From a virus (taxonomy: Duplodnaviria > Caudoviricetes), in IMG/VR virus record IMGVR_UViG_3300021958_000023, positions 32,001 through 96,000 of that record: 64,000 bases of DNA. One strand, written 5' to 3'. The notes beneath the pieces are model-generated. The model ran no database searches and was not told the DNA's origin. It saw only the letters and a program-made list of their open reading frames with translations. Position 1 is the stretch's first letter. Each line of letters starts with the position of its first letter. Position numbers and translations under genes: made by a program. This document shows, one piece after another, positions 1-44,000 of the stretch.

Positions 1-1121
1 GTGGAAGGAATTGGAACTGTAGGATTAATAGGATGATCCCAGCCAGATCTTGTATACCCTTTTTGAAGCCAGTTTAAAGTAGTTTGAGGACCATTGGTTG
101 CTCCTGAATAACTAGAAGTTGAGGGAGATGATATAGGAATATAGGTTGAAGGTAAACCAGCAGGAGATCCTGGAGCCCCGCCAGTAACTAGTCCTCCACT
201 TCCTCCAACAGCTCCTCCTCCTGCTACGACATAGTTAGTTCCACCAACGTTAACTGTTGTTGTTCCTCCAGAAGTTGTAGTAGCTTGCCCTACAGTAATT
301 GTAACTGGGGTTGAAGGAGTAACAGGTATAGTAGTAGGATAGTAAGCTATGGCTCCTGCACCTCCCCCACCTGCTCCAGACATATCAACTTGATAAGCGT
401 AGTGAGGCCACCACCAATAACCAGAATCATAAGAAAAAGGAGACTCACCACCACCAGTACCATCTCCTCCAGTATTCATATAAGTTCCAGTTGCTCCTCC
501 TGCACCAACAGCAGCATAAACATGCATAGTACTAATACCTTGACCAGCAATAGCCCCAACAGTAGAGTTTATAGGAGAATCATATACATAATCAGCTGTA
601 GGAGCCTTTTTATAGGCTGTATCTGATCCAATAGAGTTGATACCAGTACCAAAACTATTAATACCACGAACTACAAATTCGTGTAGTGTGCCTCCAGGAG
701 TTGAAGGAATTGTGACAGTTGCTGAAGTAGAAGTAATTGGAGAGCCAAGATAATCAGTAGAAATATAAGTATACGCATCAGTAGAAGGAGAAGGTCTCCA
801 ACCGACCTGCCAAGTATTAGCTGATTCACCATCTGTATCTGCTGTCCAAGATACATCAATGCCATCAAATACTGCTGCAGCTGTAGAGGCTGTTACAGAG
901 GGTGCACCGTGAACTGTCGCGCGAAGATCATAAAAGTTTGAAAGAGAAAGCTCCCCAGAAGAAGGGATAGTAGCGCCTGGACCACCACCTAGGCGTTCTC
1001 CAGCTGCTACAACAGAACCGCCAGCATAATAATCACCAAGAGATCCTGGAGCTGTACGAACAGGAGAATAGAGATTTTGAAGATCGGAAATCGAAATTTC
1101 CCCAGAGGTGGGTGTTGCCAT
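1..1121 (-). CDS. Gly/Pro/Thr-rich virion (tail fibre-associated) protein with Fn3-like segment; runs off the left edge
   Basis: Not in the ORF track. ATG at 1121-1119 overlaps the upstream TAA (TAATG). Translates MATPTSGEISISDLQNLYSPVRTAPGSLGDYYAGGSVV...SGELSLSNFY..., then a Fn3-like segment and Gly-rich repeats. Confidence 0.75.
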   Translation of the reverse strand, partial: MATPTSGEISISDLQNLYSPVRTAPGSLGDYYAGGSVVAAGERLGGGPGATIPSSGELSLSNFYDLRATVHGAPSVTASTAAAVFDGIDVSWTADTDGESANTWQVGWRPSPSTDAYTYISTDYLGSPITSTSATVTIPSTPGGTLHEFVVRGINSFGTGINSIGSDTAYKKAPTADYVYDSPINSTVGAIAGQGISTMHVYAAVGAGGATGTYMNTGGDGTGGGESPFSYDSGYWWWPHYAYQVDMSGAGGGGAGAIAYYPTTIPVTPSTPVTITVGQATTTSGGTTTVNVGGTNYVVAGGGAVGGSGGLVTGGAPGSPAGLPSTYIPISSPSTSSYSGATNGPQTTLNWLQKGYTRSGWDHPINPTVPIPS

Positions 1122-3547
1122 TACTTGTCCTCAATTTGAGCTTTTAGTTCTTTTATAGCTTGAATCAGTAGAGGAACTACTCGACCATAGTCTACAGATA
1201 GATAACCATCATCCCTTTCTTTTACTGCTTCTGGTAATACTTCTTTCAATTCTTGTGCTATCACACCAACATCATGACCTTTTAGATGTCCATAGTGAAG
1301 ACCTGCTTCGGAAGCATCCCAATCAAATTCAACACCTTGTATTTGATCTATTTTATCAAGCGCAGAATCAATAGATTTTACGTTGTGTTTCAAACGGTAA
1401 TCTGAAGTATTAAATGCCGAAACATCGCCACCTGCATGAATTGCTCCTTCAACTCCTAAACCACCTTGTGTGATAATTATTGCACCTGTATCTTTAGAAG
1501 TAGATGCGGTGGTGTTTGTTACAGAAAGAGAATCAGATTCAAGAGAAGTGAAGTTACCAGTTCCTTGTGATGCAGCACCAATATTAGTTCCATCAATTGC
1601 ACCGCCATTAATATCTACAGTAGAAATAGTAACTGTTGTACCGTTAAATGTAAATGTAGAAGCGTCTTGTAATTCACCATTAGTACCGGCATAAACAACT
1701 CTTCCAGAAGTTAAGTCTGCAACATTAGCTGAAGCTACTTTTAGTTGAGTTCCTTGTTTAATATGAACATCACCACTTCCATTAGGCGATAAAAGTATAT
1801 CACCATTTGTGTCTGTAGAGCTTATAGTTCTGCCATTAAGTTGTAATTGATCAACACGAATGTCTGTGGCAACAGAGCTAGTACCGATAGTAACACCATC
1901 AATAGCACCCCCATTAATATCAACAGTTTGAGCAGTAAGAGTTGTTCCATTAAAAGTTAAATCTGCGTCAGTTACAAGCTCACCAGAAGTTGTTGTATAG
2001 ACAACTCTACCACTAGTTTGTCCAGTTACAAACACATTTGGAGATCTCAAATCTCTTTGTGGTAAAACATCTCTAGCATAAACATCTTGATAACCAGTAA
2101 CTGAAAGAGATCCTGCAGCTGTACCATCATCAGTAGTGCTAAAAGCAGCCCAACCATCATTTGCTTCATCCCAGATCCATGCCATATTGTCTACAGAAGG
2201 ACGATAAACTAGTAATCCTGCATCATAACTAGCAGGAGCAGACTGATTATTAGCAATAACAATAAAAGGATCTTGTACTAAAAGGTTAGTAGCATCAGCT
2301 GTAAAAGTAGAACCCTGAACTGTGAAATCACCTTGAACAAGCACATCTTGTTCAAAAGTTTTATCAACAGTAAAGTTTTGCGAACCTGAGTGAATAGCTG
2401 TAACATTGTCTTGAACAGTGTTTAATGCAGTCTTAGTAGCAAATGTAGTGTTAGCATACGATCCTGCAGTGTCTACAACTGCTCTTACAACTGTTACATT
2501 ATTTTGAACTGAGTTTACATTAGCAACTTGATCAGTGTGTAGAGTATCAATTCTTGAACCAATTGGAGTTAGATTACTTTGAACACTATCAATATTAGTA
2601 TTCGCTGTTGACGCAAAATAGTCTAAGTTTGCCTTAACAAGATTGATAGATGTATTAGCAGAATCTAAACCAAAGGTTAAAGAGTTTAAAGTTGTATTAG
2701 TAGTAGAGGCATAGTGATGTAAGTTAATCTGAACTTTACCTGCAGCAACATCTTGAGATAATGTTGCCCCTACAATAACAAGATTACCGTTAATTCTTAA
2801 GTTACCATTAATTTGAAATTGAGTATTAGGAACAATACCGCCAGGACCAATAATGACTTGGTCTCCAACCTCATCATTAGCTACATATCTGAAACCATTA
2901 TCACCAACAGTTAACGACTCAGTAATAGTAACAGTATTAGCTCCTTTAATAGCTCCATACATTGTAATATTTCTAAGCTGACTTGCAGGAGATCCTATAT
3001 CCATATAAGATTGAAGAACCGTGATTCCATAATCAGGATCAAAACCATATGTACCAAAATTACGATCTGGAATAATAGAACTATTGGCAGTTAGTATACG
3101 ATTATATTTATAACCATCGCTAAAAAATGCCGCACTATGTGCATGATCTACAGCAAAGTAACCATTATAAGTATCAGCAGGTGGAAAAGCATTATTACTG
3201 GTGAAAGCTGTGCCAAATATCATACGAGCAGTAGTAACAAAAGCGTTACCGTTGTCAGTGATAAATGTCAAACCACCAGTAGAAATTGAGGCATTATTTA
3301 GAATAGGACTATCAATAACAGGAGATCCATTAATTCTAGTTCCAGGGCTCATGTATAGATTTGCATTAATAGTAGCAGGCACACCAATAGGCTCATTAAG
3401 AGTAAGCCCCTCAATGGTTACTGTTGTTATATTTACATTTGATAGACTGGTTTGTACAGTTGCATCACTGATTCCAAGGTTATCTATAGCCCCAGAAATA
3501 TTGTTTGAACCTGTACCACCCAAGGAAACGGGAATTATGGTTGCCAT
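1121..3547 (-). CDS. Tail fibre/spike with C-terminal peptidase S74 intramolecular chaperone
   Basis: C-terminus SDYRLKHNV...GVIAQEL...LSVDYGRVVPLLIQAIKEL is the S74 chaperone signature. Internal duplicated module SGRVVY...TFNGTT..TVDINGGAIDG. Likely start is MATIIPV at 3547 after GAGG (ORF track start 3607). Confidence 0.9.
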   Translation of the reverse strand: MATIIPVSLGGTGSNNISGAIDNLGISDATVQTSLSNVNITTVTIEGLTLNEPIGVPATINANLYMSPGTRINGSPVIDSPILNNASISTGGLTFITDNGNAFVTTARMIFGTAFTSNNAFPPADTYNGYFAVDHAHSAAFFSDGYKYNRILTANSSIIPDRNFGTYGFDPDYGITVLQSYMDIGSPASQLRNITMYGAIKGANTVTITESLTVGDNGFRYVANDEVGDQVIIGPGGIVPNTQFQINGNLRINGNLVIVGATLSQDVAAGKVQINLHHYASTTNTTLNSLTFGLDSANTSINLVKANLDYFASTANTNIDSVQSNLTPIGSRIDTLHTDQVANVNSVQNNVTVVRAVVDTAGSYANTTFATKTALNTVQDNVTAIHSGSQNFTVDKTFEQDVLVQGDFTVQGSTFTADATNLLVQDPFIVIANNQSAPASYDAGLLVYRPSVDNMAWIWDEANDGWAAFSTTDDGTAAGSLSVTGYQDVYARDVLPQRDLRSPNVFVTGQTSGRVVYTTTSGELVTDADLTFNGTTLTAQTVDINGGAIDGVTIGTSSVATDIRVDQLQLNGRTISSTDTNGDILLSPNGSGDVHIKQGTQLKVASANVADLTSGRVVYAGTNGELQDASTFTFNGTTVTISTVDINGGAIDGTNIGAASQGTGNFTSLESDSLSVTNTTASTSKDTGAIIITQGGLGVEGAIHAGGDVSAFNTSDYRLKHNVKSIDSALDKIDQIQGVEFDWDASEAGLHYGHLKGHDVGVIAQELKEVLPEAVKERDDGYLSVDYGRVVPLLIQAIKELKAQIEDK

Positions 3548-3634
3548 CAGTACCTCACAAAAATTCTTGTATAGTGTCATAATACAAGAATTAATCAGGT
3601 TTGGCAATTGGTATTTTTGCTAATTTAGGTATTA

Positions 3635-4883: not shown

Positions 4884-4898
4884 ATTTTCCTCTATAGT

Positions 4899-4972
4899 TG
4901 GAGCGGGATACGGGAATCGAACCCGTCTCGTCAGCTTGGAAGGCTGTCATAATACCACTATACCAATCCCGC
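4899..4972 (-). tRNA. tRNA-Gly(TCC)
   Basis: Reverse complement GCGGGATTGGTATAGTGG...GCCTTCCAAGC...GGGTTCGATTCCCGTATCCCGCTCCA folds as a cloverleaf with encoded CCA. Confidence 0.95.
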
Positions 4973-4973
4973 C

Positions 4974-5051
4974 TGGCCTCTGCGGGAGGACTCGAACCCC
5001 CGACCCACGGCTTAGAAGGCCGTTGCTCTAATCCAGCTGAGCTACGCAGAG
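4974..5051 (-). tRNA. tRNA-Arg(TCT)
   Basis: Reverse complement CTCTGCGTAGCTCAGCTGGATTAGAGCAACGGCCTTCTAAGCCGT...GGTTCGAGTCCTCCCGCAGAGGCCA. Confidence 0.95.
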
Positions 5052-5207
5052 TTAATCTAAGTCTATTATCTCTTCTATCTCTTCAACGATTTCTTTTATT
5101 TCTTCTAGTTGAGTCGGAAGATGAACTATCTCATCTTCACAATATAAAACATCTTTTATTTTTAGTAGTAACTCAACTAATTCTGAATGTTGATGAGGGA
5201 GTAGCAT
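5052..5207 (-). CDS. Small acidic hypothetical protein (51 aa)
   Basis: Not in track. MLLPHQHSELVELLLKIKD...EIIDLD*; fills the gap exactly and is TAATG-coupled to the upstream gene. Confidence 0.55.
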   Translation of the reverse strand: MLLPHQHSELVELLLKIKDVLYCEDEIVHLPTQLEEIKEIVEEIEEIIDLD

Positions 5208-5464
5208 TATTCAAAATAGGTATCAAGAGAGTCTATCATATCATCGTATTTAGACACTAGATCTAATTCTTTTTCAATTTCTTCCATGATATCGCCGTGT
5301 TCTCCAATACCAACAGGATTATTGATCAGAATTTCGATATTAGCTATGTGCTTTTCTAGATGACCTTCTAGATGCTTTCTTGTTGCTCGGAGAAGTATAT
5401 CTCTCATTTTAGTCCTCCTTAGACCAGTCATATAATTTTTTTGTAACACTATAAGTATAGTCAT
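5207..5464 (-). CDS. Conserved phage hypothetical protein
   Basis: NIEILINNPVGIGEHGDIMEEIEKEL motif, common in marine phages. Likely start is MRDILL after GGAGG. Confidence 0.7.
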   Translation of the reverse strand: MTILIVLQKNYMTGLRRTKMRDILLRATRKHLEGHLEKHIANIEILINNPVGIGEHGDIMEEIEKELDLVSKYDDMIDSLDTYFE

Positions 5465-6847: not shown

Positions 6848-7432
6848 ATGTATTTACCTAACCACTTACAAAATTTTTCTACACAGTTGTACGAAAGATA
6901 TAAAAATATAAACCCAGTTGAGATAATAACAAATTATCACTTCATAAGAGATGGAAGAGTTTTCTTCATTGAAAATGGTGAAGAGAATATGGTATTTCCT
7001 GACTCTTATAAAAATACTATATCAAAAATTAAAGCTCATAGCAAGAATACATTTAAAGTAGAAGGTTTTGAAAAGTTTGATGAATATCTTGCAACTGTGT
7101 GTGATAGTAAAACTAAAGATGAATATATAGACTGTCATTTGTATTGGGGTAAAGTGGGAAAATCTAGTTTTATAACCCATGTTGATCCTTACGATGTTGT
7201 AATAGTAATGATTTCTGGCACTAAAAAAATGGTGTTTCCTGATAATAATGAAGAACAAGTACTGAATCCAGGAGATACTGTATATATTCCAGGAAATAAA
7301 GCACACTATGCTAATAACGTAACAGAAAATATTTCTCTAAGTTTTGGTATTAGAAAGTACTATAAATACATAGATTTAAAACTCCAATCATTGCAGATGG
7401 CAGCTGATGCATCATATAACAGTATATCTTAA
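6848..7432 (+). CDS. JmjC/cupin 2OG-dependent hydroxylase
   Basis: SFITHVDPYDVVIVMISGTKK...LNPGDTVYIP...HYA...SLSFG has the JmjC HxD...H pattern. Confidence 0.8.
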   Translation: MYLPNHLQNFSTQLYERYKNINPVEIITNYHFIRDGRVFFIENGEENMVFPDSYKNTISKIKAHSKNTFKVEGFEKFDEYLATVCDSKTKDEYIDCHLYWGKVGKSSFITHVDPYDVVIVMISGTKKMVFPDNNEEQVLNPGDTVYIPGNKAHYANNVTENISLSFGIRKYYKYIDLKLQSLQMAADASYNSIS

Positions 7433-8459
7433 AACTACAGAAACTTGTCAGTTAAATTGTAAACATTGTTTTACCAACGGGATAAACGGTAGAAAAATAT
7501 ATTTTAACCCTGTTAAGACAGTAGAGTGGATAAATAAATTAAAAACAGCTTATCAAAACAACTCTATACATTTTGAGTTTCACGGTGGAGAACCGTTTTT
7601 AGCCCCAGTTTCGGATATGAAATATGTTGTTGAAAATACAAAACAACTGTGGAACAACGCAAGTTATGGAATGACAAGTAATCTAACTCTTAATCTGGAC
7701 GAAGAAAAAACACAATTTATATTGAAAGATTTAAATGGTATAATAGGCACTTCGTGGGATAAAAGTATCAGATTTACTAACATAAAACAAAAAGAGTTAT
7801 GGGAAAATAATGTAAAATATTTAAAGTCTTTAGGTGTTTATATAACACTATTTGTAAGTGTTACTAAGGAACTTTGCAATACTGATCCTGAAACTATTAT
7901 AGAATATTTTAATAGTTTAGGAGTAGATGAAGTAGATTTTGAAAGACTAACCAATCACGGAAATGCAAAACTACATCCTGAAATTTTTCCGACTAATAAA
8001 GAACAAGATACTTGGTTTTTAAACTTATACAAGTGTAAAACAAAAAGAGAGTGGAAAGATAGTTTTATAGACTCAATAGTAAAAACAAGACTAGCAGGTT
8101 CTCAAACAGCTACTTTTTGCAGAGATTGTGAACAAAAATTATTTACTGTAAATGCAGACGGAACAATTAGTGGATGTCCTAATGCAGCTCCAGAAGAGGT
8201 TTATGGTAATATTGAACAAGACATTTGGGATTTACTTTGGAATCCAAAAAGAAAATATATAATAGCTTGTGAAGCAGCTAGAGATGAAAGATGTTATAGC
8301 TGTGAAGTATTTGATTTATGTGGGAGTGGGTGTCATCAGCTAGACTGGGATGAAACTCATTGCCCCTCTCCTAAAAGTTTATTTAAGCTATTAAAACAAA
8401 CACCTATAAAAGAAATAAAAGAAGGAGCGTATTATGCCAATTCAAAACACTGGGGATGA
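7407..8459 (+). CDS. Radical SAM/SPASM protein #1
   Basis: CQLNCKHC (CxxxCxxC), FHGGEP; C-terminal CRDC..GTISGCP..CYSCEVFDLCGSGC..CP. Confidence 0.92.
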   Translation: MHHITVYLKTTETCQLNCKHCFTNGINGRKIYFNPVKTVEWINKLKTAYQNNSIHFEFHGGEPFLAPVSDMKYVVENTKQLWNNASYGMTSNLTLNLDEEKTQFILKDLNGIIGTSWDKSIRFTNIKQKELWENNVKYLKSLGVYITLFVSVTKELCNTDPETIIEYFNSLGVDEVDFERLTNHGNAKLHPEIFPTNKEQDTWFLNLYKCKTKREWKDSFIDSIVKTRLAGSQTATFCRDCEQKLFTVNADGTISGCPNAAPEEVYGNIEQDIWDLLWNPKRKYIIACEAARDERCYSCEVFDLCGSGCHQLDWDETHCPSPKSLFKLLKQTPIKEIKEGAYYANSKHWG

Positions 8460-9036
8460 AATTAGTAAAGCAGCAGTTTTACAAAGATTTAATGAAGTCA
8501 TGCGTGACAATATTAATCCTGTTATTGATGTAGGTTCTGGAACACCTTTTACCACTGGAACATACAGGGAGTTGACAAATACAGGGGATGGAGGTATTCC
8601 TATTAATCATGTAGGAGCGCCTACAGTATCTCCTGCTACAACCGGGGGTCTAACAGACACTATTATAGACGCTGCAGGATTAGCCAATTATTTAAGAACT
8701 CTTACTAGAAATTATAGCCAAGTAAGAAAACTAAATTGGAGACTGAGATTTAATAAAACAGGATATCCTAGTGGTAATGGTAATCTGGTTTTAGAACAAA
8801 CAACTACTGACTACATTCATCTAAATGCTGAAACATATAAACAAACAGTTACAGATAATGCTACAACCTATAATATTGAAGAAGGCGATCTAATTGATGC
8901 ATCTGACTTTGAAAGCTATATAGCAGATTTATACTCACAGTGGAGTACTTTAAAAGAAAATACAGTAACAATCTATGTTGATACTTGTCATGCAAGTTGT
9001 CATTCAAACTGTCACGGTTCTAGGGGAAGAAGATAA
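8434..9036 (+). CDS. Putative substrate/precursor: virion-like protein with C-terminal (CHxS/N)3-RGRR tail
   Basis: Thr/Gly/Asn-rich 200-aa protein. Its only three Cys lie in the terminal CHASCHSNCHGSRGRR. Embedded among radical SAM genes. Confidence 0.7.
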   Translation: MPIQNTGDEISKAAVLQRFNEVMRDNINPVIDVGSGTPFTTGTYRELTNTGDGGIPINHVGAPTVSPATTGGLTDTIIDAAGLANYLRTLTRNYSQVRKLNWRLRFNKTGYPSGNGNLVLEQTTTDYIHLNAETYKQTVTDNATTYNIEEGDLIDASDFESYIADLYSQWSTLKENTVTIYVDTCHASCHSNCHGSRGRR

Positions 9037-9734
9037 TGAAAGTAATTAAGACTAAGGCACCAATAGATGTTGAATATTTACAAGAATATTTTTCATCTGA
9101 AGAAGAAATAATGTTTGAGTTAATGTATTATGATAGTGATATAAAAGGAAGAACTTTTTTTAACTATGTAGCAAATCTAGACATTAAGTTCAAACTGAAT
9201 TTTTATGAAACCACACAAGAAGAAAGGTATGAGTTATTAGATCTTTACCTTAATTCTAACTCAATAATTTCCTGTAAAGAACTTGAATTGGCATTAACGT
9301 ATTTAGTACTTAAATATAATAACTGTAATGTAGATGACTTATACTCTTTTTCAATTCTTAGTCCGGAGTATGCTGAAAAATTTATAACAGAAAAAATGAA
9401 TAAACTGATGACTGTAACAGAATTTTTAGAATCTTTACCTATTACGACTCTCTCTTTTGTATCCTCTTTAAAAGAGTTTGTAAATCAAGAATTGAAAAAT
9501 TATGATGTAGTAGAAGATACAGATATAATAGGTAAAAATATAATAAATCTGATTAATAATCCTTTTATATTTCAACTGTATGAAACTAGTGGAAGTAGAA
9601 AAAGATATTTTAAGTATTACTCTGAAGAGTATATTTATGATGAAAAAAATCTATACGGCTGGATGACCGACAACGACGTACCCCTCTTAGTTTTTGTATC
9701 AGGAATAGCAGCCGGTGTTCAACCTAGTAAATAA
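9036..9734 (+). CDS. Hypothetical protein of the radical SAM cluster
   Basis: Long ORF, TAATG-coupled to the precursor gene; no recognisable motif. Confidence 0.75.
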   Translation: MKVIKTKAPIDVEYLQEYFSSEEEIMFELMYYDSDIKGRTFFNYVANLDIKFKLNFYETTQEERYELLDLYLNSNSIISCKELELALTYLVLKYNNCNVDDLYSFSILSPEYAEKFITEKMNKLMTVTEFLESLPITTLSFVSSLKEFVNQELKNYDVVEDTDIIGKNIINLINNPFIFQLYETSGSRKRYFKYYSEEYIYDEKNLYGWMTDNDVPLLVFVSGIAAGVQPSK

Positions 9735-10851
9735 TGTATATTTAGAATATAATTTTTGTTATACCTCTGAAATACCTAAACTATTAGTAGGGTATGAAGA
9801 GCCTTTGCCAAACACTTGGAATTATTTCAAAGACGCTGATAGTTTATTTGAAAGTAATACTTTAAAAAATATAGATAAAAGTACAGAAATAGTAGTTTTA
9901 GCAAACGAAGATGCTTATAACAAAATATTAATTACATATTTAAAATCAATCCTACCAAACTGCATAGAGCAATCTGCGTATCATTTTTATAAACTTCTTT
10001 TACAAAAACATATCTATTTACACGGAAAATCATGTTTAGCACATGATGACGGATCTACTAATCTAAAATCTCCTTGGAACTCATTAACATTATTATCGTT
10101 AAAGGAATTTAGTAGTATATATAAAACTTGTAGTAAACACTTACTAGATGATTTCTATACAAAAGGAGCTTGTTTAGAACTACACTTAGCTAGTTATTTA
10201 GCAAATACTAAATATAACCATAAAGATATATTATATAAAAAACTATATAATATAGTTGCTGATACAGTATTAAACGAATTAACTTATTGGAAAATGAATG
10301 TAATGTGTCAGTTATTTGAGTTAGGGGATTTAGTTGATAGCATAGAGTATGGCTCTCATTTGTATGAAAATGCAGTTTATGAAGATTTAAAACTACCAAA
10401 AGAATACGATTGGTTAATGGATGGAAATATAAAAGCCTACCCTGACCTAAAGTATGTTAAAGAAAACTATGATCTAAAAACTCTATTTAGACTTTATAGA
10501 AAATCTGTAATGAAGTATGGTCACAATGGATTTTATAATAGTGAAGTTTTAATGGAAAAGTTCATTGAAGGTAACTTAGGATTAAGAGACATAATAAATA
10601 TCGATATTAACACAATTTATGCAGGTGGAAATATTGGAGAATATCAATATCAAGATAGAACTACTCACTACTTATTAAGATATTTCTATCTCTTAGCAAC
10701 AGAAAAAAGATACGATAAACTATCTGAGTATTCTTTAGAAACTACTGACAAAGTATTTAAACCTTTTATAAATGAATATAAAAGAAATAAAAAAATTCCG
10801 AAAGAATGGAATTTAACAGACCACCACAGTTTTAGAGAAGGCTATGTATAA
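9715..10851 (+). CDS. Hypothetical protein of the radical SAM cluster
   Basis: 378-aa ORF overlapping both neighbours; no recognisable motif. Confidence 0.75.
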   Translation: MFNLVNNVYLEYNFCYTSEIPKLLVGYEEPLPNTWNYFKDADSLFESNTLKNIDKSTEIVVLANEDAYNKILITYLKSILPNCIEQSAYHFYKLLLQKHIYLHGKSCLAHDDGSTNLKSPWNSLTLLSLKEFSSIYKTCSKHLLDDFYTKGACLELHLASYLANTKYNHKDILYKKLYNIVADTVLNELTYWKMNVMCQLFELGDLVDSIEYGSHLYENAVYEDLKLPKEYDWLMDGNIKAYPDLKYVKENYDLKTLFRLYRKSVMKYGHNGFYNSEVLMEKFIEGNLGLRDIINIDINTIYAGGNIGEYQYQDRTTHYLLRYFYLLATEKRYDKLSEYSLETTDKVFKPFINEYKRNKKIPKEWNLTDHHSFREGYV

Positions 10852-11833
10852 CACAGTCATAGATAAAAAAGCGTCCACTCTGGGAGAGGTTATTGTAACA
10901 CTGTTTGAACACTGTAATCTTGCGTGTAGTTTTTGTTCTCAAAATCATAATTCATTTGAGGGTGTGGAATCCATCCCAGAAAAATACTTTGCGATAAAAA
11001 GCGTCTATGAAAACTTACGCTCACAAAATAAAGAACAATTTTCCTTTCATTTTATGGGCGGAGAGATTTTGAGTGATTCAGTTTCAAATCAAATTTTGAA
11101 TAAAATTGAAGATTTAATTCTTAGATGTCAACAATCATTTGAAAACAGTGAATTTCTAATAACTTCTAATATGATATGGAGTGATAGAGATAGGGTAAGA
11201 CAAATGCTAGATAGGCTAGAAATTAAACTAGCAGTCAGCTATGATCCTGCGGGTCGCTTTAATACTACTCAACTAGAACAGTTTATGTCTAATGTTGAGT
11301 ATTTTAAAGATTATATCACCACAGTAAATATAATTCTAACAGCTCCTAATATTTATAAATTTTTAGGTAATGATATAACAGGTTTTGAGTATCTATATGA
11401 TAACTTTAATATATATTTTGATTACTATACTCCTGAAAAAAACGCTAGTATAAACTGTCCTACAGATGTAGAGTTATTAGAAATATTCAAATATTTGTCT
11501 AGTAATTATCCTAAAGTAGCACCTATAAACAAGTATTTATCTGGAGATACTAGGAAAAATTTAACCTGTCAAAGAACAAAGGTAATAGCTGCTAATGGAG
11601 AAATAGGTCACTGTAATTTATTAGTTGGAGGCAACTATAGAGCATTAGCACATGATAGTAGAGATAAGATGGAAGCTAAATGGATAGAAGGATTTAATTG
11701 CTTAATGTGTGATCATTTTACTAGATGTGGGTTGGGGTGTTTTCAAGAAAACCATATTTTACCTGAAAAAAGTACTATGGAGCATTGTTGGATTAAAGAC
11801 TATTGGGAATGGTTAGATGGAACTTATAATTAA
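10844..11833 (+). CDS. Radical SAM/SPASM-like protein #2
   Basis: CNLACSFC, FMGGE; C-terminal CLMCDHFTRCGLGC..HC. Confidence 0.9.
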   Translation: MYNTVIDKKASTLGEVIVTLFEHCNLACSFCSQNHNSFEGVESIPEKYFAIKSVYENLRSQNKEQFSFHFMGGEILSDSVSNQILNKIEDLILRCQQSFENSEFLITSNMIWSDRDRVRQMLDRLEIKLAVSYDPAGRFNTTQLEQFMSNVEYFKDYITTVNIILTAPNIYKFLGNDITGFEYLYDNFNIYFDYYTPEKNASINCPTDVELLEIFKYLSSNYPKVAPINKYLSGDTRKNLTCQRTKVIAANGEIGHCNLLVGGNYRALAHDSRDKMEAKWIEGFNCLMCDHFTRCGLGCFQENHILPEKSTMEHCWIKDYWEWLDGTYN

Positions 11834-12890
11834 ACCAACAGAACGTTGTAACTTTAAATGTACCTTTTGCTCTAGTACAAAAATTGCTGATTCTAAATCT
11901 GTAGAATTAGAGCATGAAAAAATATTTGCTTTTTTAAGAAGATTTCCTGATACTAATACTATTATTGTAAACGGTGGTGACCCTCTAATGATGACACCTG
12001 ATTACTATTGGAAAATAATAGATTACTTAAATGAACACGGCTTGAATACTACTATATCTTTAACGACTAATCTATGGCCGTTCTATAAAAATCCGACTAA
12101 ATGGATTGATCTTTTGAGTCATCCTAGAGTAGGGGTTTGTACCTCTTTTCAATATGGAGGAGGTAGATTAAAAGGAGATTTTTCAGAGTTTACTGAAGAA
12201 GACTTTTGGAATGTTTCAGATAAAATGTTAGAACTCGTAGGTTACCGTCCTGATTTTATCTCAGTAATAACAAAAGAAAATGAAGATCAAGCTATTGACA
12301 ATGTAAGATTAGCTAAAAAAATGGGAGTAGTGTGTAAACTAAACTATGCTGTTGCAAGCGGTCCAGAAATTAGATTTCTTAATGGAATTAAGATGGGATT
12401 AGAAAACTATACCTATCTACTTGCAGATATATATGAAATTTATCTTAAAATTTATAAGCTAGGACTTGCTGATTGGGAATATAACACTACTCAACTACTA
12501 AAAAGATTTTCTTCTAATACTACTTGTCCACAAAACAGACGTTGTGATGAAAATATTAGAAACCTAAATCCAGGAGGTGACTACTATTCTTGCGGAGCAT
12601 TTGGAGATGACAAAGAGTATGAAATAGATTTTGATAAAGAGATGAATCAAGATAAAGTAGAAACTCCTTTACAAAAGTCTATAGAACTACTATCTTTAAA
12701 ACAATCTTGTTTTACTTGTCCTATGTTTAAGATTTGTAATGGATGTAAAAAAACTACTAGTGATTTGAAAAGATTAAATTTAGTAGAAACACACTGTAAA
12801 AAAATGAAGAAACTAGCGCCTGACATAATAGAAATATGTAATTTAAAAACAAAAGTAACGGAGTATATAGATGAGTCAATATACACATAG
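11817..12890 (+). CDS. Radical SAM/SPASM protein #3
   Basis: IIKPTERCNFKCTFC, NGGDP; CPQNRRC..YYSCG..CFTCPMFKICNGC..HC. Confidence 0.92.
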   Translation: MELIIKPTERCNFKCTFCSSTKIADSKSVELEHEKIFAFLRRFPDTNTIIVNGGDPLMMTPDYYWKIIDYLNEHGLNTTISLTTNLWPFYKNPTKWIDLLSHPRVGVCTSFQYGGGRLKGDFSEFTEEDFWNVSDKMLELVGYRPDFISVITKENEDQAIDNVRLAKKMGVVCKLNYAVASGPEIRFLNGIKMGLENYTYLLADIYEIYLKIYKLGLADWEYNTTQLLKRFSSNTTCPQNRRCDENIRNLNPGGDYYSCGAFGDDKEYEIDFDKEMNQDKVETPLQKSIELLSLKQSCFTCPMFKICNGCKKTTSDLKRLNLVETHCKKMKKLAPDIIEICNLKTKVTEYIDESIYT

Positions 12891-13668
12891 AAAACTATGG
12901 CCTACCCCTATTTTATTAGGAAGTATTGATAAAGAATTAGCCAAAGATTTATTTAATTATATACTGAATAAGTATCATAATCCTGATGAAAAAACAGAAG
13001 TATTTAATCTGTTTTCTATCGGTGAGCCTCTTTTAGATAATCTATATAAAAACCATATTGTTCCTGCTACAAAAGAATATATTAAAAATAATTTATTTCA
13101 GTCTAACCATTATGAAATAAATTCTTATGCGTGGGCTCACGTATTGCCACAAGGACAAAATGTAGGTATTCATAATCATCCTAATAATCATATAAGCGGT
13201 ACTATATGGTTAAACGATCATGATAGTCATCTTTTAATGGTCGATCCAAAAGGTAATTCTAATATGATGGATTTTGGATATCTAGATTTAGAAATGTTAA
13301 CTAAAATGGGTATGACTGTTGGGAATGATGAAATTAGACATAACCATACTTCTAGATATAACGAGTTTGGAAGACAGATGAATAATAGCACACTAGACTT
13401 CACAGGACTTTTTGGTGATTATGTTGATACATTTGATAAACCAACTAGATCAGTAAATCCAACTAACATCACTATTAAACCAGAGCTTGGTAAGTTTGTA
13501 TTATTTCCATCTTGGGTATGGCACGAAGTAGAACCAAACCAATCTAAAATGCCTAGAATTAGTATTTCTTGGGATACTAGAATTACTCCAAAGATAAAAA
13601 AAGAGCATAATATTCATCATGAACAAGACATTAGAATATTAGGAGATGTTCTTGATATACAGAACTAA
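12871..13668 (+). CDS. 2OG-Fe(II) oxygenase (TIGR02466-like)
   Basis: LWPTP, HNHPNNHISG, LFPSWVWHEV, RISISWD. Confidence 0.85.
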   Translation: MSQYTHRKLWPTPILLGSIDKELAKDLFNYILNKYHNPDEKTEVFNLFSIGEPLLDNLYKNHIVPATKEYIKNNLFQSNHYEINSYAWAHVLPQGQNVGIHNHPNNHISGTIWLNDHDSHLLMVDPKGNSNMMDFGYLDLEMLTKMGMTVGNDEIRHNHTSRYNEFGRQMNNSTLDFTGLFGDYVDTFDKPTRSVNPTNITIKPELGKFVLFPSWVWHEVEPNQSKMPRISISWDTRITPKIKKEHNIHHEQDIRILGDVLDIQN

Positions 13669-14071
13669 GAAAGCTGATATTAATGATTTACAAATATTAG
13701 TAGCTTTATCATATAATATGATAAAAGATGAGCGGTATGAACGAGATGATTTAGTTTATATTATAAAAAATGATATAATTGAAATACTATATTTCAATAA
13801 TATAGCTATTGGATACTATACCGTAATTAATCATGAGAAGGGTAAGTACTTAGAAACTATATTAATTGATAAAAAATATCAAGGAACAGAAGCAGTATAT
13901 CAATTATGTAATAAAGCAGTTAACCCTATTAATGGAAATCCTTTATGGGGTTTAAGTAGATATAAACGAGTTGATATATTATTGAAAAAATATGGTTTTG
14001 AACCAAAAGAATATGAAACAATTAAAGGAAGAAAGTACAGATGGTGGATAAACCGTTTTCAGTCTCAATAA
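13646..14071 (+). CDS. GNAT-family acetyltransferase-like protein
   Basis: KADINDL, IGYY, YLETILIDKKYQG (motif A-like), LLKKYGF. Confidence 0.6.
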   Translation: MFLIYRTKKADINDLQILVALSYNMIKDERYERDDLVYIIKNDIIEILYFNNIAIGYYTVINHEKGKYLETILIDKKYQGTEAVYQLCNKAVNPINGNPLWGLSRYKRVDILLKKYGFEPKEYETIKGRKYRWWINRFQSQ

Positions 14072-14958
14072 ACCCTAGTTACTTTTGTAATTTTAGATGT
14101 GATTTTTGTTATCTAACTCCTGAACAACTAGGAGACCAGAAAAAAATTGATCTTAAAAAATTAGATAAATTACTTTCTGAAGTGCCAAAAATAGATCATA
14201 TAGATTTATACGGCGGAGAAATAGGAGCATTAAAAAGGAGTTATTATGAAGACCTTATCAAAACAATACGCAATTGGTATTCTGACACTATCAACATTAA
14301 TACTAATTTTTCTATGCTTGACGACAGATTCTTCGAGGATGGAATCTCTCTTTCCGTCTCATATGATTTTTCAGCAAGAGAAAAATCTAATCTAGTATAT
14401 AATAATATGTTAATGAGCCCTGTGCCTCTCTCGGTTCTTATCTTAGCTTCAGCTGAAGTAGTAAAAATGGATGTAGACTATATGATTAAACAATTAAATA
14501 TGTGTAAATCAGTAAAGTCAGTTGAAATAAAGCCATATTCTATAAATCAAGCAAATGCTCATTTAGTAACTCATAGAGAGTTTGAGTTATTTGTGTCTCA
14601 GTGGATTGATAGTCCTATAGAAAAACGGTTTGAGTTTCAAAACTTGAGAAGAATTGAACGAAGTGTCAAGAAGGAGTATAGTGCTTGGTCTGATGATCAT
14701 ATCTATATTACTCCTAATGGAAAGTTTGCTGTATTAGAGTTTGATCAAAACGATAGAGAATATTTTATGGAATTACCGAGTTACAACGCATTTGAACAAT
14801 GGGCGTGGAGAGAGAAAAGAACACTATCTACAATATGTCAAAACTGTAGTTGGGTAGGACATTGCTTAACAGAACACTATAGACAAGTAAAAGATTTAAA
14901 ACATAGTTGTAATGGTTATATAAATCTTTTAACAAAGTACCAACATGATTTTATATAA
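14041..14958 (+). CDS. Radical SAM protein #4 with Cys-rich C-terminus
   Basis: CNFRCDFC, LYGGE; C-terminal CQNCSWVGHCLTEH..SCNG. Confidence 0.9.
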   Translation: MVDKPFSVSINPSYFCNFRCDFCYLTPEQLGDQKKIDLKKLDKLLSEVPKIDHIDLYGGEIGALKRSYYEDLIKTIRNWYSDTININTNFSMLDDRFFEDGISLSVSYDFSAREKSNLVYNNMLMSPVPLSVLILASAEVVKMDVDYMIKQLNMCKSVKSVEIKPYSINQANAHLVTHREFELFVSQWIDSPIEKRFEFQNLRRIERSVKKEYSAWSDDHIYITPNGKFAVLEFDQNDREYFMELPSYNAFEQWAWREKRTLSTICQNCSWVGHCLTEHYRQVKDLKHSCNGYINLLTKYQHDFI

Positions 14959-23767: not shown

Positions 23768-25270
23768 TTAAGGGTAAGTATTTCCCCATTTAATTCCGAC
23801 TCCTCCAACTTGTCCATTGCCACCGCTTGTAGCAAGGTTTTTAGCATATCCGCCAGGATAAGTACCGAATGAAGGACGGCCAATATACAACATTCCTGAT
23901 CCGGCTCCTCCGCCTCCGCCACCATGAAATGGTCCTGGAGGTGATCCATCTCCGCCAACTGATGATCCGTGTGATAGCGTATAAGGAGGAGCTCCTCCTG
24001 CTCCGCTAGGGCCTTTACCTGTTAATCCTACTCCGCCACCTGCTCCTCCTGTAAGGACATAGGCTGGAAAAAATGGAGAAGTTGTGTTAAAGAAATAAGA
24101 GCGAGATGCTTGACCTCCACCACCACCACCAGCAGGTGCGGGGCTTCCACTACCATTACCCGTATCAACAAAAGGATAATAACTGCCTAAGCTTCCTCCT
24201 CCGCCACCAACACCTTCATATCCAGCAGCTCCCCCACCGCCTCCGCTAGAGATTGAGGGATTTATGTTAAAGCTACCTGATTCAGCATTACCATCATCTG
24301 ACCAACTTCTTCCTCCAACTCCACCTCTGTATTCTCCTGTTGTTCCTGTAATTGTTGGATCAAAAACAAAAGGGGTACTATTAGCTGGGTTTGAGCCTGC
24401 CGATCCAGTGCTGTATCGAGGTACAAGAGTTGATAACCCTCCAACTCCTCCGCCTGCAGAAACTAATGTAGTTCCTCCTCTAGCTATATAGGATGCTCCA
24501 CCATTACCTCCTGCATTTCCTGCTGAGCCATAAACAACACTCCCGCCATTGCCTGCAGCGCCTACAACAACAGTTAAACTTTCTCCTGGAGTAACAGGAA
24601 TCGAATTAGCCCAAGCTAAGTCTCCGCCATTTCCGCCCTTGCCTTGATAATGACTAGGAGAATACATAAGATTAATTTCTGGAGTAAATGGAGAGTTAGC
24701 CGGTGCTCGTGGAAAACCACTGTATGGAGAGCGAGCAGCTCCTCCACCACCTCCGCCTCCGCCTACTACTACAGCACTAATACTTTCAACACCTTCGGGG
24801 ACAACAAAAGTATGGCTTCCAGCAGTAGTAAAATAATTAGATCCTACAGGATCTTGGCTGCTATCTAATATAGTAATAGAAGTATTCACACGTGGATAAC
24901 TATCTAAAGTAATGGTTAAGGTTTCTGTTCCTTCTGTAGTTAAATCTTCTGACGTATTTAAAACAATAGATTCAGCGTTTCCTGTATAAAAAGCTCCTAT
25001 TAAAGGAGCTGAATTAATATCAGCAGAAGAAACTCCTGTAATTGTATAAGCAAAAGATTCTCCATCAGGAGCTCTATTACCATGCTCAAGAGTTATATTA
25101 ATTGATTGGCCTTCATTTACAGAAGTTACATTACTAGAAAGAGAGACAGCATAGGCCCCTGTAGATACCCATTCAAGAGCATTATTAGAGCCTACATAGA
25201 CTAATTCCGCCTCTACTATAGAAGTAGGAGGGCCAGATAACTGAGAAATATCAAATCTTCTCAAACTCAT
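23768..25270 (-). CDS. Glycine-rich virion/tail fibre protein with N-terminal Ig/Calx-beta-like domain
   Basis: SVNEGQSINITL...TEGTETLTITLD; FVVPEGVESISAVVVGGGGGG followed by a Gly-rich domain. Confidence 0.8.
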   Translation of the reverse strand: MSLRRFDISQLSGPPTSIVEAELVYVGSNNALEWVSTGAYAVSLSSNVTSVNEGQSINITLEHGNRAPDGESFAYTITGVSSADINSAPLIGAFYTGNAESIVLNTSEDLTTEGTETLTITLDSYPRVNTSITILDSSQDPVGSNYFTTAGSHTFVVPEGVESISAVVVGGGGGGGGAARSPYSGFPRAPANSPFTPEINLMYSPSHYQGKGGNGGDLAWANSIPVTPGESLTVVVGAAGNGGSVVYGSAGNAGGNGGASYIARGGTTLVSAGGGVGGLSTLVPRYSTGSAGSNPANSTPFVFDPTITGTTGEYRGGVGGRSWSDDGNAESGSFNINPSISSGGGGGAAGYEGVGGGGGSLGSYYPFVDTGNGSGSPAPAGGGGGGQASRSYFFNTTSPFFPAYVLTGGAGGGVGLTGKGPSGAGGAPPYTLSHGSSVGGDGSPPGPFHGGGGGGAGSGMLYIGRPSFGTYPGGYAKNLATSGGNGQVGGVGIKWGNTYP

Positions 25271-38653: not shown

Positions 38654-39423
38654 TGAAGACTTTAATTGTTTTTGGACACGGATTAGGAGACGCAGTTGTA
38701 TTATCTTCTGCTTTAAAAAACTGGTATAACCAAAAAGGATATAGAGCCTCAGTTGCAATGCAAAAAAGATTTGAACAAGCAAACCTATGGAAAAATTGCC
38801 CCTATATTGATGAGTCTGTTTATATTTTAAGCGATCCGTGGCATGATTTTGGTCACTTAAATACTAGAGTAGGGTTTCCTTCTATTTTACAAGAAGGCAT
38901 TGAGTGGGCTAAAAGAAATGGTTATGATGAAGTTAGAATGATATGGGATAGTCCGAACAACTATTTAGTACAAAACTATAATGATATGCTAGAAGTTACA
39001 ATGGAAGATGCAGATCCAGAAGTTTGGATTAGTGAAGATGATAGAGCTTTTGCAAAAGAAGAAGTACAAAGATTAACTGACGGAAATAAGTTTGCATTTA
39101 TTCAAACTCATAGCGGTGATCCTAACAGAAGCCTTCCTGAAAACTATGGTAGAGAGTGGGCTAAAAAACAAGGTATTACTCACTTTATTGAAATAAGCAA
39201 AGAAATAGAAGTAAAAGAACATGATTATTTAGTGCAGTGTGCCATAGCTAATCTAGCAGATATGGTAATAGTACCTAATTCAGGGTATTGGCACGCTTTC
39301 TGTTCTAAATCTATGAATAAAAAGATTGATTTATTATACTTTTCTAGAGGAAAAGAAGATTTTATAAAACGAAATTATTATCCACACTATAAGTGGTTTG
39401 ATAATATTATATATACTTTATGA
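38653..39423 (+). CDS. GT9-like glycosyltransferase
   Basis: HGLGDAVVLS, CPYIDE, NSGYWH. Confidence 0.65.
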   Translation: MKTLIVFGHGLGDAVVLSSALKNWYNQKGYRASVAMQKRFEQANLWKNCPYIDESVYILSDPWHDFGHLNTRVGFPSILQEGIEWAKRNGYDEVRMIWDSPNNYLVQNYNDMLEVTMEDADPEVWISEDDRAFAKEEVQRLTDGNKFAFIQTHSGDPNRSLPENYGREWAKKQGITHFIEISKEIEVKEHDYLVQCAIANLADMVIVPNSGYWHAFCSKSMNKKIDLLYFSRGKEDFIKRNYYPHYKWFDNIIYTL

Positions 39424-39430
39424 GGGAAAA

Positions 39431-42650: not shown

Positions 42651-43021
42651 TGATTGAAGTACCAGTATCAAACGGAGAACTACTAGATAAAATCGCTATC
42701 CTAGAAGTAAAATACGATAGCGGGATTGATTCAGTAGAAAAAGAACTTAATATACTACTAGACTTAGTTGAAGAACAAGACTGGTGGCATTTACCTTATA
42801 TATACGTTTATTATCGTATGCTGCTTTCAATAAATCAAGAACTATGGGATATTGAAGATGCAAAAAGACAGTGTGAACAACAAAAAGACTTTAGCGATAA
42901 ATTTGTTCAATTAGCTAGAGCCGTCTATATTATAAACGATGAGAGAGCTAGAGTTAAAAAATCAATTAACAAATACTCAAATAGTGCATTAACAGAATAT
43001 AAAAATCACAGAGATTATTAA
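42629..43021 (+). CDS. DUF6165-like protein
   Basis: VPVSNGELLDKIAILEVK, INQELWDIED..R, LARAVYIINDERA. Confidence 0.75.
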   Translation: MDRKEVLMIEVPVSNGELLDKIAILEVKYDSGIDSVEKELNILLDLVEEQDWWHLPYIYVYYRMLLSINQELWDIEDAKRQCEQQKDFSDKFVQLARAVYIINDERARVKKSINKYSNSALTEYKNHRDY

Positions 43022-43755: not shown

Positions 43756-44000
43756 GATTAATCAATTATCAACAACTAGAAGAGCTGTTTCAAAAACACG
43801 ATTTAAACATATCTAAACCAGCAACTTTTTCTAGTAAAATATTTCAAAAACTGTTCGTAATAGGATCAACAGGATTTATAGTAATCTACGGAGTACTACT
43901 ATTTTTATTACTATTACCTCTAGTTTTGGTAGAAGCAATTATAACAGGTTTTATAAGGGGAATTAAACATGCAAAAGAAATCCGTAATAAGTCTGATTAG
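43707..44000 (+). CDS. Small membrane protein
   Basis: Long hydrophobic stretch. Likely start is MRLINY. Confidence 0.6.
   Translation: MERQRINENNRSRCGMRLINYQQLEELFQKHDLNISKPATFSSKIFQKLFVIGSTGFIVIYGVLLFLLLLPLVLVEAIITGFIRGIKHAKEIRNKSD

Follow-up and report, generated by a model that had tools for sequence, protein, structure and literature searches.

What purpose does the unusual C-terminal end of a small phage protein serve, and is this end likely to be altered by the radical-SAM enzymes encoded alongside it? To address this question, the ORF at 8434-9036 was examined within a 64,000-nucleotide stretch of a Caudoviricetes virus genome (IMG/VR record IMGVR_UViG_3300021958_000023, positions 32,001 to 96,000; referred to here as the window). 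The ORF possesses an ATG start codon preceded, at a distance of 8 nt, by AAGGAG, and encodes a 200-aa protein with exactly three Cys residues, at positions 185, 189 and 193. These Cys residues recur with a strict four-residue period, C-H-x-S/N, in the terminal CHAS-CHSN-CHGS-RGRR, which is directly followed by the stop codon. What had been observed in the sequence-only reading, i.e. three Cys residues confined to a periodic 16-residue tail capped by RGRR, was therefore confirmed.

To establish whether this tail could have arisen by chance, its conservation was compared with that of the remainder of the protein, a pattern of conserved core and variable body having been set beforehand as a test of a substrate role. 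A profile search with the tail protein identified a family of 790 representative clusters. In an alignment of 49 homologues that are 27-73% identical to this protein, C, H, C, H, C, H, S, R, R and R were found to be invariant columns, while 212 of 224 family representatives end in CH..CH..CH..R.RR, although their bodies share only 25-40% identity with this protein. The fourth position of each unit is S or N in at least 97% of cases, whereas the bodies are depleted in Cys (0.2%; 154 of 208 contain none) and in His (0.68%). The expected pattern was thus very strongly observed, and the tail is far from a chance occurrence.

The body of the protein was next examined, as the sequence-only reading had described three loose repeats and a Thr/Gly/Asn-rich, fibre-like composition. 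The repeats were shown to be weak but real: in a profile self-comparison of the family alignment, the segment pairs (75,151), (7,75) and (7,151) rank 1st, 5th and 15th among 14,028 pairs (z of about 4.7, 3.9 and 3.6, respectively), and each repeat lies just before, and runs into the start of, one of the three long helices of the predicted structure. The composition (T 13.5%, G 8.5% and N 8.5%) is likewise as described. However, the AlphaFold2 model (pLDDT 82.5, pTM 0.79) represents a compact alpha/beta domain with a disordered tail, for which pLDDT falls to 49-66 over the last 20 residues, and a fibre-like body is therefore not supported. Searches with this model using Foldseek against the PDB, VIA-align wide (best Z 4.2) and the ESM Atlas (TM at most 0.30) did not return a convincing fold match.

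The gene was shown to reside in a conserved cassette with the order cupin, rSAM-A, tail protein, unknown B, unknown C, rSAM-B, rSAM-C and rSAM-D, the coordinates of which are listed below. This order was observed in metagenomic contigs, across the 80 IMG/VR and nine GTDB genome loci fetched, and in the cultured jumbo phages Atu_ph07, RSL2 and pPa_SNUABM_DT01. Among these 89 loci, rSAM-A was detected in 85 and was adjacent to and upstream of the tail-protein gene in 69. The presence of chromosomal copies in Bdellovibrionota ruled out an initially considered phage-only distribution. Direct searches of the cultured-phage collection by megablast with the cassette, or by tblastn with a consensus-like family member, returned no hits, and cultured relatives were reached only through the tail, unknown B and rSAM-A.

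Features of the cassette and of its surroundings, with positions given relative to the window
Position	Strand	Feature	Supporting observations
1121..3607	-	828-aa tail-fibre protein with a Peptidase_S74 chaperone domain (context)	Fibre or baseplate genes also flank the cassette in five other loci
6848..7432	+	Cupin/JmjC-like protein heading the cassette	Homologues at the same position in six loci; detected in 42 of 89 loci
7407..8459	+	rSAM-A, a radical-SAM/SPASM enzyme	CxxxCxxC at residues 14-21; phrog_1802; overlaps the tail-protein gene by 26 nt
8434..9036	+	Cys-His-tail protein, folded alpha/beta body (predicted) plus C-terminal tail	
8986..9033	+	16-residue tail, putative modified core	Last 16 codons of the ORF
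9036..9734	+	Unknown B (232 aa, phrog_20767), conserved partner directly downstream	Detected in 70 of 89 loci; AlphaFold2 pLDDT 91.4; no fold match
9715..10851	+	Unknown C (378 aa), fast-evolving positional homologue	ORF of about 350-375 aa at this position in the other loci; only N-terminal similarity (E 0.015)
10844..11833	+	rSAM-B (radical SAM, SPASM-like C-terminus)	Detected in 69 of 89 loci
11817..12890	+	rSAM-C (radical SAM/SPASM), most conserved enzyme of the cassette	44-88% identical across all loci, 54-70% outside the window's four close relatives
12871..13668	+	2OG-Fe(II) oxygenase (PF13759), accessory gene	Detected in only 10 of 89 loci with this query, although other loci carry other 2OG oxygenases
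13646..14071	+	141-aa ORF inside the cassette	No family hit
14041..14958	+	rSAM-D (radical SAM with a Cys-rich C-terminus)	Detected in 61 of 89 loci
23768..25270	-	500-aa protein with a Gly_rich_2 domain	Domain shared with a natural fusion of the tail protein

All four radical-SAM proteins contain a CxxxCxxC motif. rSAM-A surpasses the cut-off for the SPASM domain (TIGR04085; 36.4 bits against 27), with rSAM-C scoring just below it (25.0 bits), and the full SPASM Cys set of rSAM-A, consisting of a seven-Cys motif plus an eighth Cys (C238, C241, C257, C296, C299, C305, C309 and C319), is invariant. The best full-length matches of rSAM-A are protein or peptide maturases, i.e. PapB, anSME, DarE, YhhB, DynA and QhpD, as well as the anSME structure 4k37. 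However, all NCBIfam scores of these enzymes are far below the family cut-offs, so that the chemistry cannot be read from homology. Furthermore, a clade in which the tail ends in CHGS[I/L], without RxRR, was shown to lack rSAM-B and rSAM-D within 10 kb, while retaining rSAM-A, rSAM-C and an unknown-B-like gene, although this co-variation rests on a single clade and therefore counts as one evolutionary event. A predicted complex of rSAM-A with the tail protein, including three 4Fe-4S clusters and SAM, scored 0.01 against a mark of 0.32, which counts neither for nor against binding. For unknown B, the best structural match had a Z of 5.4 over 61 residues, and ESM Atlas feature searches for unknown B and unknown C yielded no usable hit.

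Evidence for an association with the virion was obtained from the published proteome of Atu_ph07 (PMC6102473, Table S5). The homologue AUZ94952 has a mass of 31.89 kDa, equal to that of gp170, which was identified with eight unique peptides and 35% coverage and was most abundant in gel band 1, where proteins above about 120 kDa run. The neighbouring rSAM and cupin products are not in that list. This evidence is nevertheless limited to a single proteome from a PEG-purified stock, which also lists clearly non-structural proteins (RecA-like, ssDNA-binding, terminase and ribonucleotide reductase), and, as the loading buffer described contains no reducing agent, the high-mass band could be due to disulfides. 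In addition, a natural fusion was identified in which the body and tail are joined to a Gly_rich_2 domain, the same domain as that of the 500-aa protein of this window.

Taken together, these findings are best explained, with moderate confidence, by a protein of about 22 kDa whose folded body carries a flexible tail, (Cys-His-x-Ser/Asn)x3-Arg-x-Arg-Arg, that serves as the substrate of the co-encoded SPASM-type radical-SAM enzymes. In this view, rSAM-A, translationally coupled directly upstream, and rSAM-C would form the universal core, with rSAM-B and rSAM-D accompanying the RxRR ending. The three units would each receive the same covalent modification, most plausibly an intramolecular cross-link or oxidation involving the Cys, the His and the Ser/Asn beta-carbon, turning a floppy tail into a rigid, possibly metal- or polyanion-binding end. 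The protein would not be cut up into a secreted peptide, but would remain whole and be built into a host-contact structure, i.e. the virion of phages, probably near the baseplate or fibres, and a structure of predatory Bdellovibrionota, in which the cassette is chromosomal and has no virion context. Tail invariance, synteny, taxonomic distribution and the detection of one homologue in a virion preparation are shown, whereas it is inferred, without direct evidence of any modification, that the tail is modified, by which enzymes this occurs and what the modification does. A precedent for radical-SAM maturation of a whole protein bearing H-x-S units is provided by HxsA (PMC13128918).

The interpretation offered in the sequence-only reading is accordingly only partly supported: the conserved core, the link to radical-SAM enzymes and, through one proteome, the virion association are supported, the fibre-like body is not, and the proposed His-x-Ser cyclophanes or Cys thioethers remain hypothetical. 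Two further readings of the tail were rejected. Heme attachment at CX3CH, which both CHASCH and CHSNCH would fit, was dismissed as there is no cytochrome maturation context, the protein is made in the cytoplasm, and the conservation of Ser/Asn and RxRR would be unexplained. A lanthionine between Cys and Ser was dismissed as Asn freely substitutes for Ser.

Among the alternatives, an unmodified, metal-binding tail survives best, and is not excluded, although it is considered unlikely. Three Cys-His pairs, possibly from several subunits, could simply chelate Zn, Fe or Cu, much as His-rich motifs bind Fe or Zn in phage spikes and fibres, while the neighbouring radical-SAM enzymes would act on another substrate. 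Cys and His are the classic metal ligands and are concentrated in the tail, metal sites are established at the fibre and spike tips of T4 gp37 and gp12 and of P2-like spikes, and the protein was found in a virion preparation. However, this explanation does not account for the conserved Ser/Asn at the fourth unit position, the almost invariant RxRR end, the near-obligatory coupling to rSAM-A directly upstream over hundreds of divergent loci, or the co-loss of RxRR with rSAM-B and rSAM-D, and no other candidate substrate is conserved in the cassette.

An HxsA-like effector, in which the matured basic tail would bind DNA or another polyanion in the periplasm and serve superinfection exclusion in phages and defence in Bdellovibrionota rather than being a structural part, is more doubtful. 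HxsA is a radical-SAM-matured protein whose basic HxS repeats bind DNA and block phage DNA entry (PMC13128918), the tail described here has three H-x-S/N units and ends in RxRR, and the cassette stands alone on Bdellovibrionota chromosomes. Conversely, no Pfam or NCBIfam domain, and hence no peptidoglycan-binding domain, was detected in the protein, and its N-terminus has, by inspection, no signal-peptide-like hydrophobic stretch. Moreover, the enzymes do not resemble those of the HXS system at the level of family cut-offs (see below), the cassette sits among fibre and baseplate genes, and the homologue was detected in a virion preparation.

A classical RiPP, in which the 184-residue body would represent a very long leader and the modified tail would be released as a small bioactive peptide, is about as doubtful. 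A conserved core with a variable N-terminal part is the RiPP pattern, repeated short motifs are typical of radical-SAM RiPP cores, and PapB is the best family hit of rSAM-A. However, no protease or exporter belongs to the conserved core of the cassette, the body is a confidently folded (predicted), conserved domain that was detected with 35% coverage in a virion preparation, and it also occurs fused to a domain shared with another large protein of this window. Least likely is a role of the tail in binding an Fe-S cluster, with the protein serving the four enzymes as a scaffold, chaperone or electron donor, since, although the cassette needs up to a dozen [4Fe-4S] clusters, three terminal Cys could ligate one and the gene is coupled to rSAM-A, C-x3-C-x3-C with obligatory His, Ser/Asn and RxRR is not a known Fe-S carrier motif, the protein but not the enzymes is in the virion preparation, and some loci have tandem paralogues and some tails have two or four units.

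Radical-SAM maturation has been described for secreted peptides and for a few cellular proteins, whereas, to our knowledge, no phage particle protein is known to be modified in this way. Literature searches retrieved only gene lists that mention cupin, rSAM and 2OG genes in FLC6 and S13 (PMC8066314, PMC11898562) and multiple rSAM genes in Campylobacter phages (PMC2853527), without any functional description, and no paper describing the cassette was found among those that could be searched. The cassette costs the phages 8-10 kb, yet is kept from marine phages of about 170 kb to 490-kb jumbo phages of plant pathogens and Pseudomonas aeruginosa, and its sharing with predatory bacteria argues for an important role in attacking Gram-negative cells. 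If the inferred maturation is correct, it would offer new enzyme chemistry on a simple, repeated, leader-independent C-terminal motif, accessible in cultured phages, and may mirror the recently described HXS defence. An improbable, though not excluded, extension of this view, which would be of great interest if true, is that the modified tail is a chemically active end (redox, metal-binding or polyanion-binding) on a host-contact protein shared by phages and predatory Bdellovibrionota for attacking Gram-negative cells, which could, for example, help to cross the envelope or escort DNA through the periplasm, and could be the attackers' counterpart of the HxsA gatekeeper.

To place the cassette among known systems, its enzymes and tail were compared with those of characterized maturation systems. 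With regard to triceptide and dynobactin-type three-residue cross-links (XyeB, GrrM, FxsB, YhhB; DynA His-N to C-beta at i+2), H-x-S/N is an aromatic-x-x unit repeated three times, as in triceptide cores, and DynA is the best hit of rSAM-C (55.1 bits). However, all scores are 5-10 times below the cut-offs (310-450 bits for the XyeB, GrrM, FxsB and YhhB models), with YhhB at 45.1 and FxsB at 31.4 bits for rSAM-A, XyeB at 22.1 bits for rSAM-C and GrrM at 22.3 bits for rSAM-D, and the invariant Cys before each His has no counterpart; any such cross-link, in triceptides a C-C bond between an aromatic ring and the C-beta of residue i+2, remains conjectural here. The maturase family of the CXXX-repeat target system (TIGR04115, cut-off 350 bits) was matched by rSAM-A and rSAM-B at 25.8 and 19.0 bits only.

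In ranthipeptide and sactipeptide maturation (PapB with CX3D repeats; CteB; thuricin CD with its C-x3-C-x3-C ladder), Cys residues are likewise repeated with a period of four, and PapB can act on C-terminal motifs without a leader (PMC12373016, PMC12715619). rSAM-A scores 60.6 bits against the PapB equivalog (NF047865, cut-off 340 bits), the tail has no Asp or Glu acceptor as required by Cys-X3-Asp/Glu motifs, sactipeptide and ranthipeptide precursors are short, and sactipeptide products are cleaved from a leader. The anaerobic sulfatase-maturating enzyme and QhpD/QhpC systems represent SPASM enzymes that modify whole proteins, which remain functional proteins. rSAM-A is a minimal enzyme of about 350 aa with no N-terminal recognition domain, aligns end to end with anSME, and its eight invariant Cys in the C-terminal half would allow two fully ligated auxiliary clusters. 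Nonetheless, it scores 56.1 bits against a cut-off of 349 for anSME (TIGR03942) and 35.6 against 453 for QhpD, while the sulfatase motif C/S-x-P/A-x-R and the Cys...Asp/Glu pairs of QhpC are absent from the tail, only the third unit, C-H-G-S-R, resembling the former, with G/S/N where P/A is expected.

The closest known system is the HXS antiphage system, in which HxsA is matured by the radical-SAM enzymes HxsB and HxsC with HxsD (Li et al., Nat Commun 2026, PMC13128918; NCBIfam TIGR03976-03979). In both cases a whole folded protein, rather than a short peptide, carries tandem His-x-Ser units with basic residues, which in HxsA are matured by two or more dedicated radical-SAM enzymes, as is inferred for the tail described here; in HxsA, a +8 Da change maps to an S-H-x-S-S unit, and the mature protein acts in the cell envelope during phage DNA entry. 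Each feature of HXS membership that was examined was found to be lacking. rSAM-A scores 35.2 bits against the HxsB model (TIGR03978, cut-off 370 bits), which ranks 11th among its hits, and rSAM-C scores 33.3 bits against the HxsC model (TIGR03977, cut-off 267.9 bits), over its first 89 residues only. HxsD (TIGR03976), a small protein with LYW and LLNDYxLRE motifs, was not found among the ORFs scanned against NCBIfam, which did not include the 2OG oxygenase: unknown B, unknown C, the 141-aa ORF and a 169-aa ORF gave no hit at E <= 0.01, and the cupin only two unrelated ones. The tail protein also has, by inspection, no signal-peptide-like N-terminus, no peptidoglycan-binding domain was detected in it, each of its units starts with an invariant Cys, and the units are located at the extreme C-terminus, followed by RxRR, alongside four radical-SAM enzymes, all far below the HxsB and HxsC cut-offs. 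Furthermore, the carriers of the cassette are phages and Bdellovibrionota, whereas 99.7% of HXS systems are in Pseudomonadota.

To examine the gene encoding the Cys-His-tail protein, the ORF at 8434-9036 (+) was first inspected at the sequence level. The ORF starts at an ATG preceded by AAGGAG 8 nt upstream, overlaps the end of the preceding ORF by 26 nt, and has a stop codon which overlaps the start of the next ORF (TAATG). The deduced protein consists of 200 residues, and its only three Cys residues (185, 189 and 193) are located in CHAS-CHSN-CHGS, which is followed by RGRR and the stop codon. The coordinates and the C-terminal motif proposed in the sequence-only reading were therefore exact, and its observation was confirmed.

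A word-indexed search identified 76 homologues, all derived from metagenomes. In an alignment of 49 of these, which are 27-73% identical to the protein studied here, the invariant columns were M1 and the C, H, C, H, C, H, S, R, R and R residues of the tail. An exhaustive profile search identified 790 representative clusters at E <= 0.001, and 457 at 1e-10. Of the 224 representatives whose sequences could be read, 212 end in CH..CH..CH..R.RR. The fourth position of each unit is occupied by S or N in at least 97%, while the third position is a small residue. The bodies were shown to be depleted in Cys (0.2%, with none in 154 of 208) and in His (0.68%). Rare variants were also observed, i.e. a tail of two units (family representative P0300), a tail of four units (homologous locus L098), replacement of the middle Cys (representatives P0246 and P0281), tandem paralogous tail proteins (loci L075, L076, L078 and L096), and a clade in which the tail ends in CHGS[I/L] without RxRR.

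Protein structure prediction using AlphaFold2 on the family alignment yielded a confident, compact alpha/beta domain (pLDDT 82.5, pTM 0.79) with a low-confidence tail. Searches with this model using Foldseek against the PDB, VIA-align against 48,161 chains (best Z 4.2) and the ESM Atlas returned no convincing match. On this predicted model the body is therefore not fibre-like, contrary to the sequence-only reading, and no related fold was found in the collections searched. The three loose repeats which that reading had pointed out represent the best internal similarities in a profile self-comparison (z 3.6-4.7), each lying just before, and running into the start of, one of the three long helices. 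The Thr/Gly/Asn richness of the protein was likewise shown to be real.

The window belongs to a 173.5-kb IMG/VR virus which encodes a family-A DNA polymerase, a NAD ligase and a DnaB-like helicase. The ORF is located in a co-directional block of mostly overlapping genes, the coordinates of which are listed below together with those of other features. All four radical-SAM enzymes of this block (rSAM-A to rSAM-D) carry CxxxCxxC within their first 30 residues, so that none has an N-terminal recognition domain, and all four have Cys-rich C-termini. rSAM-A passes the SPASM domain cut-off (36.4 against 27 bits), and eight Cys residues in its C-terminal half are invariant. An 828-aa tail fibre with a Peptidase_S74 domain is located about 3 kb upstream on the other strand. 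The tRNA genes listed lie between the lysis/sugar genes and the cassette.

Positions of the cassette genes and of other features in the window and in two homologous loci (L007 and the Bdellovibrionota locus L097)
Sequence	Position	Strand	Feature
Window	4898-5260	+	120-aa ORF overlapping the two tRNA genes, probably spurious
Window	4899-5051	-	Two adjacent tRNA genes, Gly(tcc) and Arg(tct)
Window	6848-7432	+	Cupin/JmjC-like protein
Window	7407-8459	+	rSAM-A
Window	8434-9036	+	Tail protein
Window	9036-9734	+	Unknown B (phrog_20767)
Window	9715-10851	+	Unknown C
Window	10844-11833	+	rSAM-B
Window	11817-12890	+	rSAM-C
Window	12871-13668	+	2OG oxygenase
Window	13646-14071	+	141-aa ORF
Window	14041-14958	+	rSAM-D
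Window	23768-25270	-	500-aa protein with a Gly_rich_2 (PF21722) domain
Window	39398-45961	+	Sugar-modification genes (a DegT-type aminotransferase and a GT4 glycosyltransferase)
Window	46773-48518		NAD-dependent DNA ligase with a BRCT domain
L007	13355-15028		B12-binding class-B radical-SAM enzyme
L097	7264-8991		B12-binding class-B radical-SAM enzyme
L097	17708-18754		348-aa protein combining a type IV pilin N-terminal methylation motif with a Peptidase_S74 (fibre chaperone) domain

The same gene order was shown to recur in contigs carrying homologues of only 27-41% identity, in 80 IMG/VR loci, and in the cultured jumbo phages Agrobacterium Atu_ph07 (tail CHSSCHASCHNSRSRR), Ralstonia RSL2 (ORF068, CHSSCHTSCHGSRGRR) and Pseudomonas pPa_SNUABM_DT01 (CHTSCHTSCHSARGRR). 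Homologues of rSAM-A also occur in Sinorhizobium Phosso and in Burkholderia FLC6, FLC8 and S13. A tblastn comparison over 89 loci, many of which are truncated, detected rSAM-A in 85 (upstream-adjacent in 69), unknown B in 70, rSAM-B in 69, rSAM-C in 69, rSAM-D in 61 and the cupin in 42. The enzymes are much more conserved than the body of the putative substrate: outside the window's four close relatives, rSAM-C is 54-70% identical in all but one locus and rSAM-A mostly 46-57%, compared with 25-40% for most of the tail-protein matches. Fibre, baseplate or giant structural genes flank the cassette in most loci.

The clade with tails ending in CHGS[I/L] (loci L071-L074, L080, L082, L083, L085, L089 and L090) carries rSAM-A, an unknown-B-like gene, rSAM-C and a class-B (B12-binding) rSAM of 634 aa, while no rSAM-B or rSAM-D was found within 10 kb. 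rSAM-A, rSAM-C and unknown B thus form the core, and RxRR travels with rSAM-B and rSAM-D, although this association rests on one clade and hence on a single evolutionary event. Some other cassettes (those of L007 and L097) add a B12-binding class-B radical-SAM enzyme, suggesting an optional methylation step.

To assess whether the tail protein is associated with virions, the computed masses of the Atu_ph07 products were compared with a published proteome. AUZ94952, the Atu_ph07 homologue, has a computed mass of 31.89 kDa, and its neighbours AUZ94958 and AUZ94959 have masses of 66.07 and 21.66 kDa, values which match gp170, gp176 and gp177 of Supplementary Table S5 of Attai et al. 2018 (PMC6102473). 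In that study, gp170 was identified by ESI-MS/MS with 8 unique peptides and 35.16% coverage in gel slices 1-9, and was most abundant in slice 1, where the 127-139 kDa proteins run, whereas other proteins of 29-32 kDa peak in slices 7-8. However, the stock was PEG-purified, the list also contains evident non-structural proteins, and the loading buffer is described without a reducing agent, so that disulfides could explain the anomalous migration. The rSAM (40.87 kDa), the cupin and unknown B are absent from the list. Furthermore, a natural fusion (representative P0236, 453 aa) joins a Gly_rich_2 domain (PF21722) to the body and tail, and the same domain occurs in a 500-aa protein of the window, consistent with a structural role.

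To explore the distribution of the cassette beyond phages, a pattern scan of 185,579 species genomes was performed, which identified only 9 loci, five on phage-like MAG contigs and four from Bdellovibrionota. An HMM search found matches in 15 of 401 sampled Bdellovibrionota genomes, whereas in two control phyla the same search found only the starting genome, among 401 genomes of the phylum of the Marinovum MAG and likewise among 401 of the phylum of the Vicingus MAG. The Bdellovibrionota copies (loci L097, L110, L111 and L112) lie on contigs of up to 2.84 Mb (2.84 Mb for L112 and 2.45 Mb for L110), and carry the full enzyme set (rSAM-A to rSAM-D), with unknown B and the tail protein, in a shuffled orientation. 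These chromosomal copies are flanked by housekeeping genes, i.e. a DinG-like helicase, LspA and a RecN-like protein at L110, and a phosphonate ABC transporter at L097, where the cassette also lies next to the pilin/Peptidase_S74 protein. The cassette is thus shared by two kinds of attackers of Gram-negative cells.

Together, the presence of an invariant, repetitive and predicted disordered tail on a diverging body, the near-obligatory coupling to SPASM rSAMs that lack recognition domains, the co-variation of the tail end with the enzyme set, and the detection of a homologue, but not of the enzymes, in a virion preparation suggest that the tail is the substrate of the SPASM-type rSAM enzymes of the cassette, and that the protein stays whole and joins a host-contact structure. 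While the conservation, the gene order, the distribution and the detection of a homologue in one virion preparation were shown, the modification itself, the enzymes responsible and a place in the virion are inferred. An rSAM-modified tail of a structural or host-contact protein is considered more likely than not, with moderate confidence, and the interpretation offered by the sequence-only reading, a modified tip on a structural protein of fibre-like composition, is supported in part. The threefold repeat suggests one reaction per unit, for which a Cys thioether, a His-to-C-beta link as in dynobactin or the triceptides, or oxidation of Cys are candidates, each of which, taken alone, remains doubtful. 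Homology cannot decide between these, as the best family hits (PapB 60.6, anSME 56.1, DarE 50.6 and YhhB 45.1 bits for rSAM-A; DynA 55.1 bits for rSAM-C) are 5-10 times below their cut-offs, and the only full-length solved relative is anSME.

Literature searches returned only gene lists in which these genes are mentioned. Pfam and NCBIfam contain no model for the tail protein, and PHROGs contains only an unannotated one (phrog_35144). Maturation by rSAM enzymes of a ribosomal protein bearing repeated motifs is already known, and the cassette is considered to follow this principle while differing from the described systems with which it was compared. The features tested for the ranthipeptide, anSME, triceptide and CXXX-repeat families were not found in the cassette. 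The closest described system is HXS (PMC13128918), in which HxsB and HxsC, with HxsD, mature the protein HxsA, which has five basic HxS repeats; a +8 Da change maps to an SHRSS unit, and the mature protein blocks phage DNA entry in the periplasm. The present cassette resembles HXS in principle, but every membership feature tested failed: the rSAM scores are too low, no HxsD was identified, and no signal peptide or peptidoglycan-binding domain was recognised in the tail protein, which furthermore carries a Cys in every unit and is associated with a different host range.
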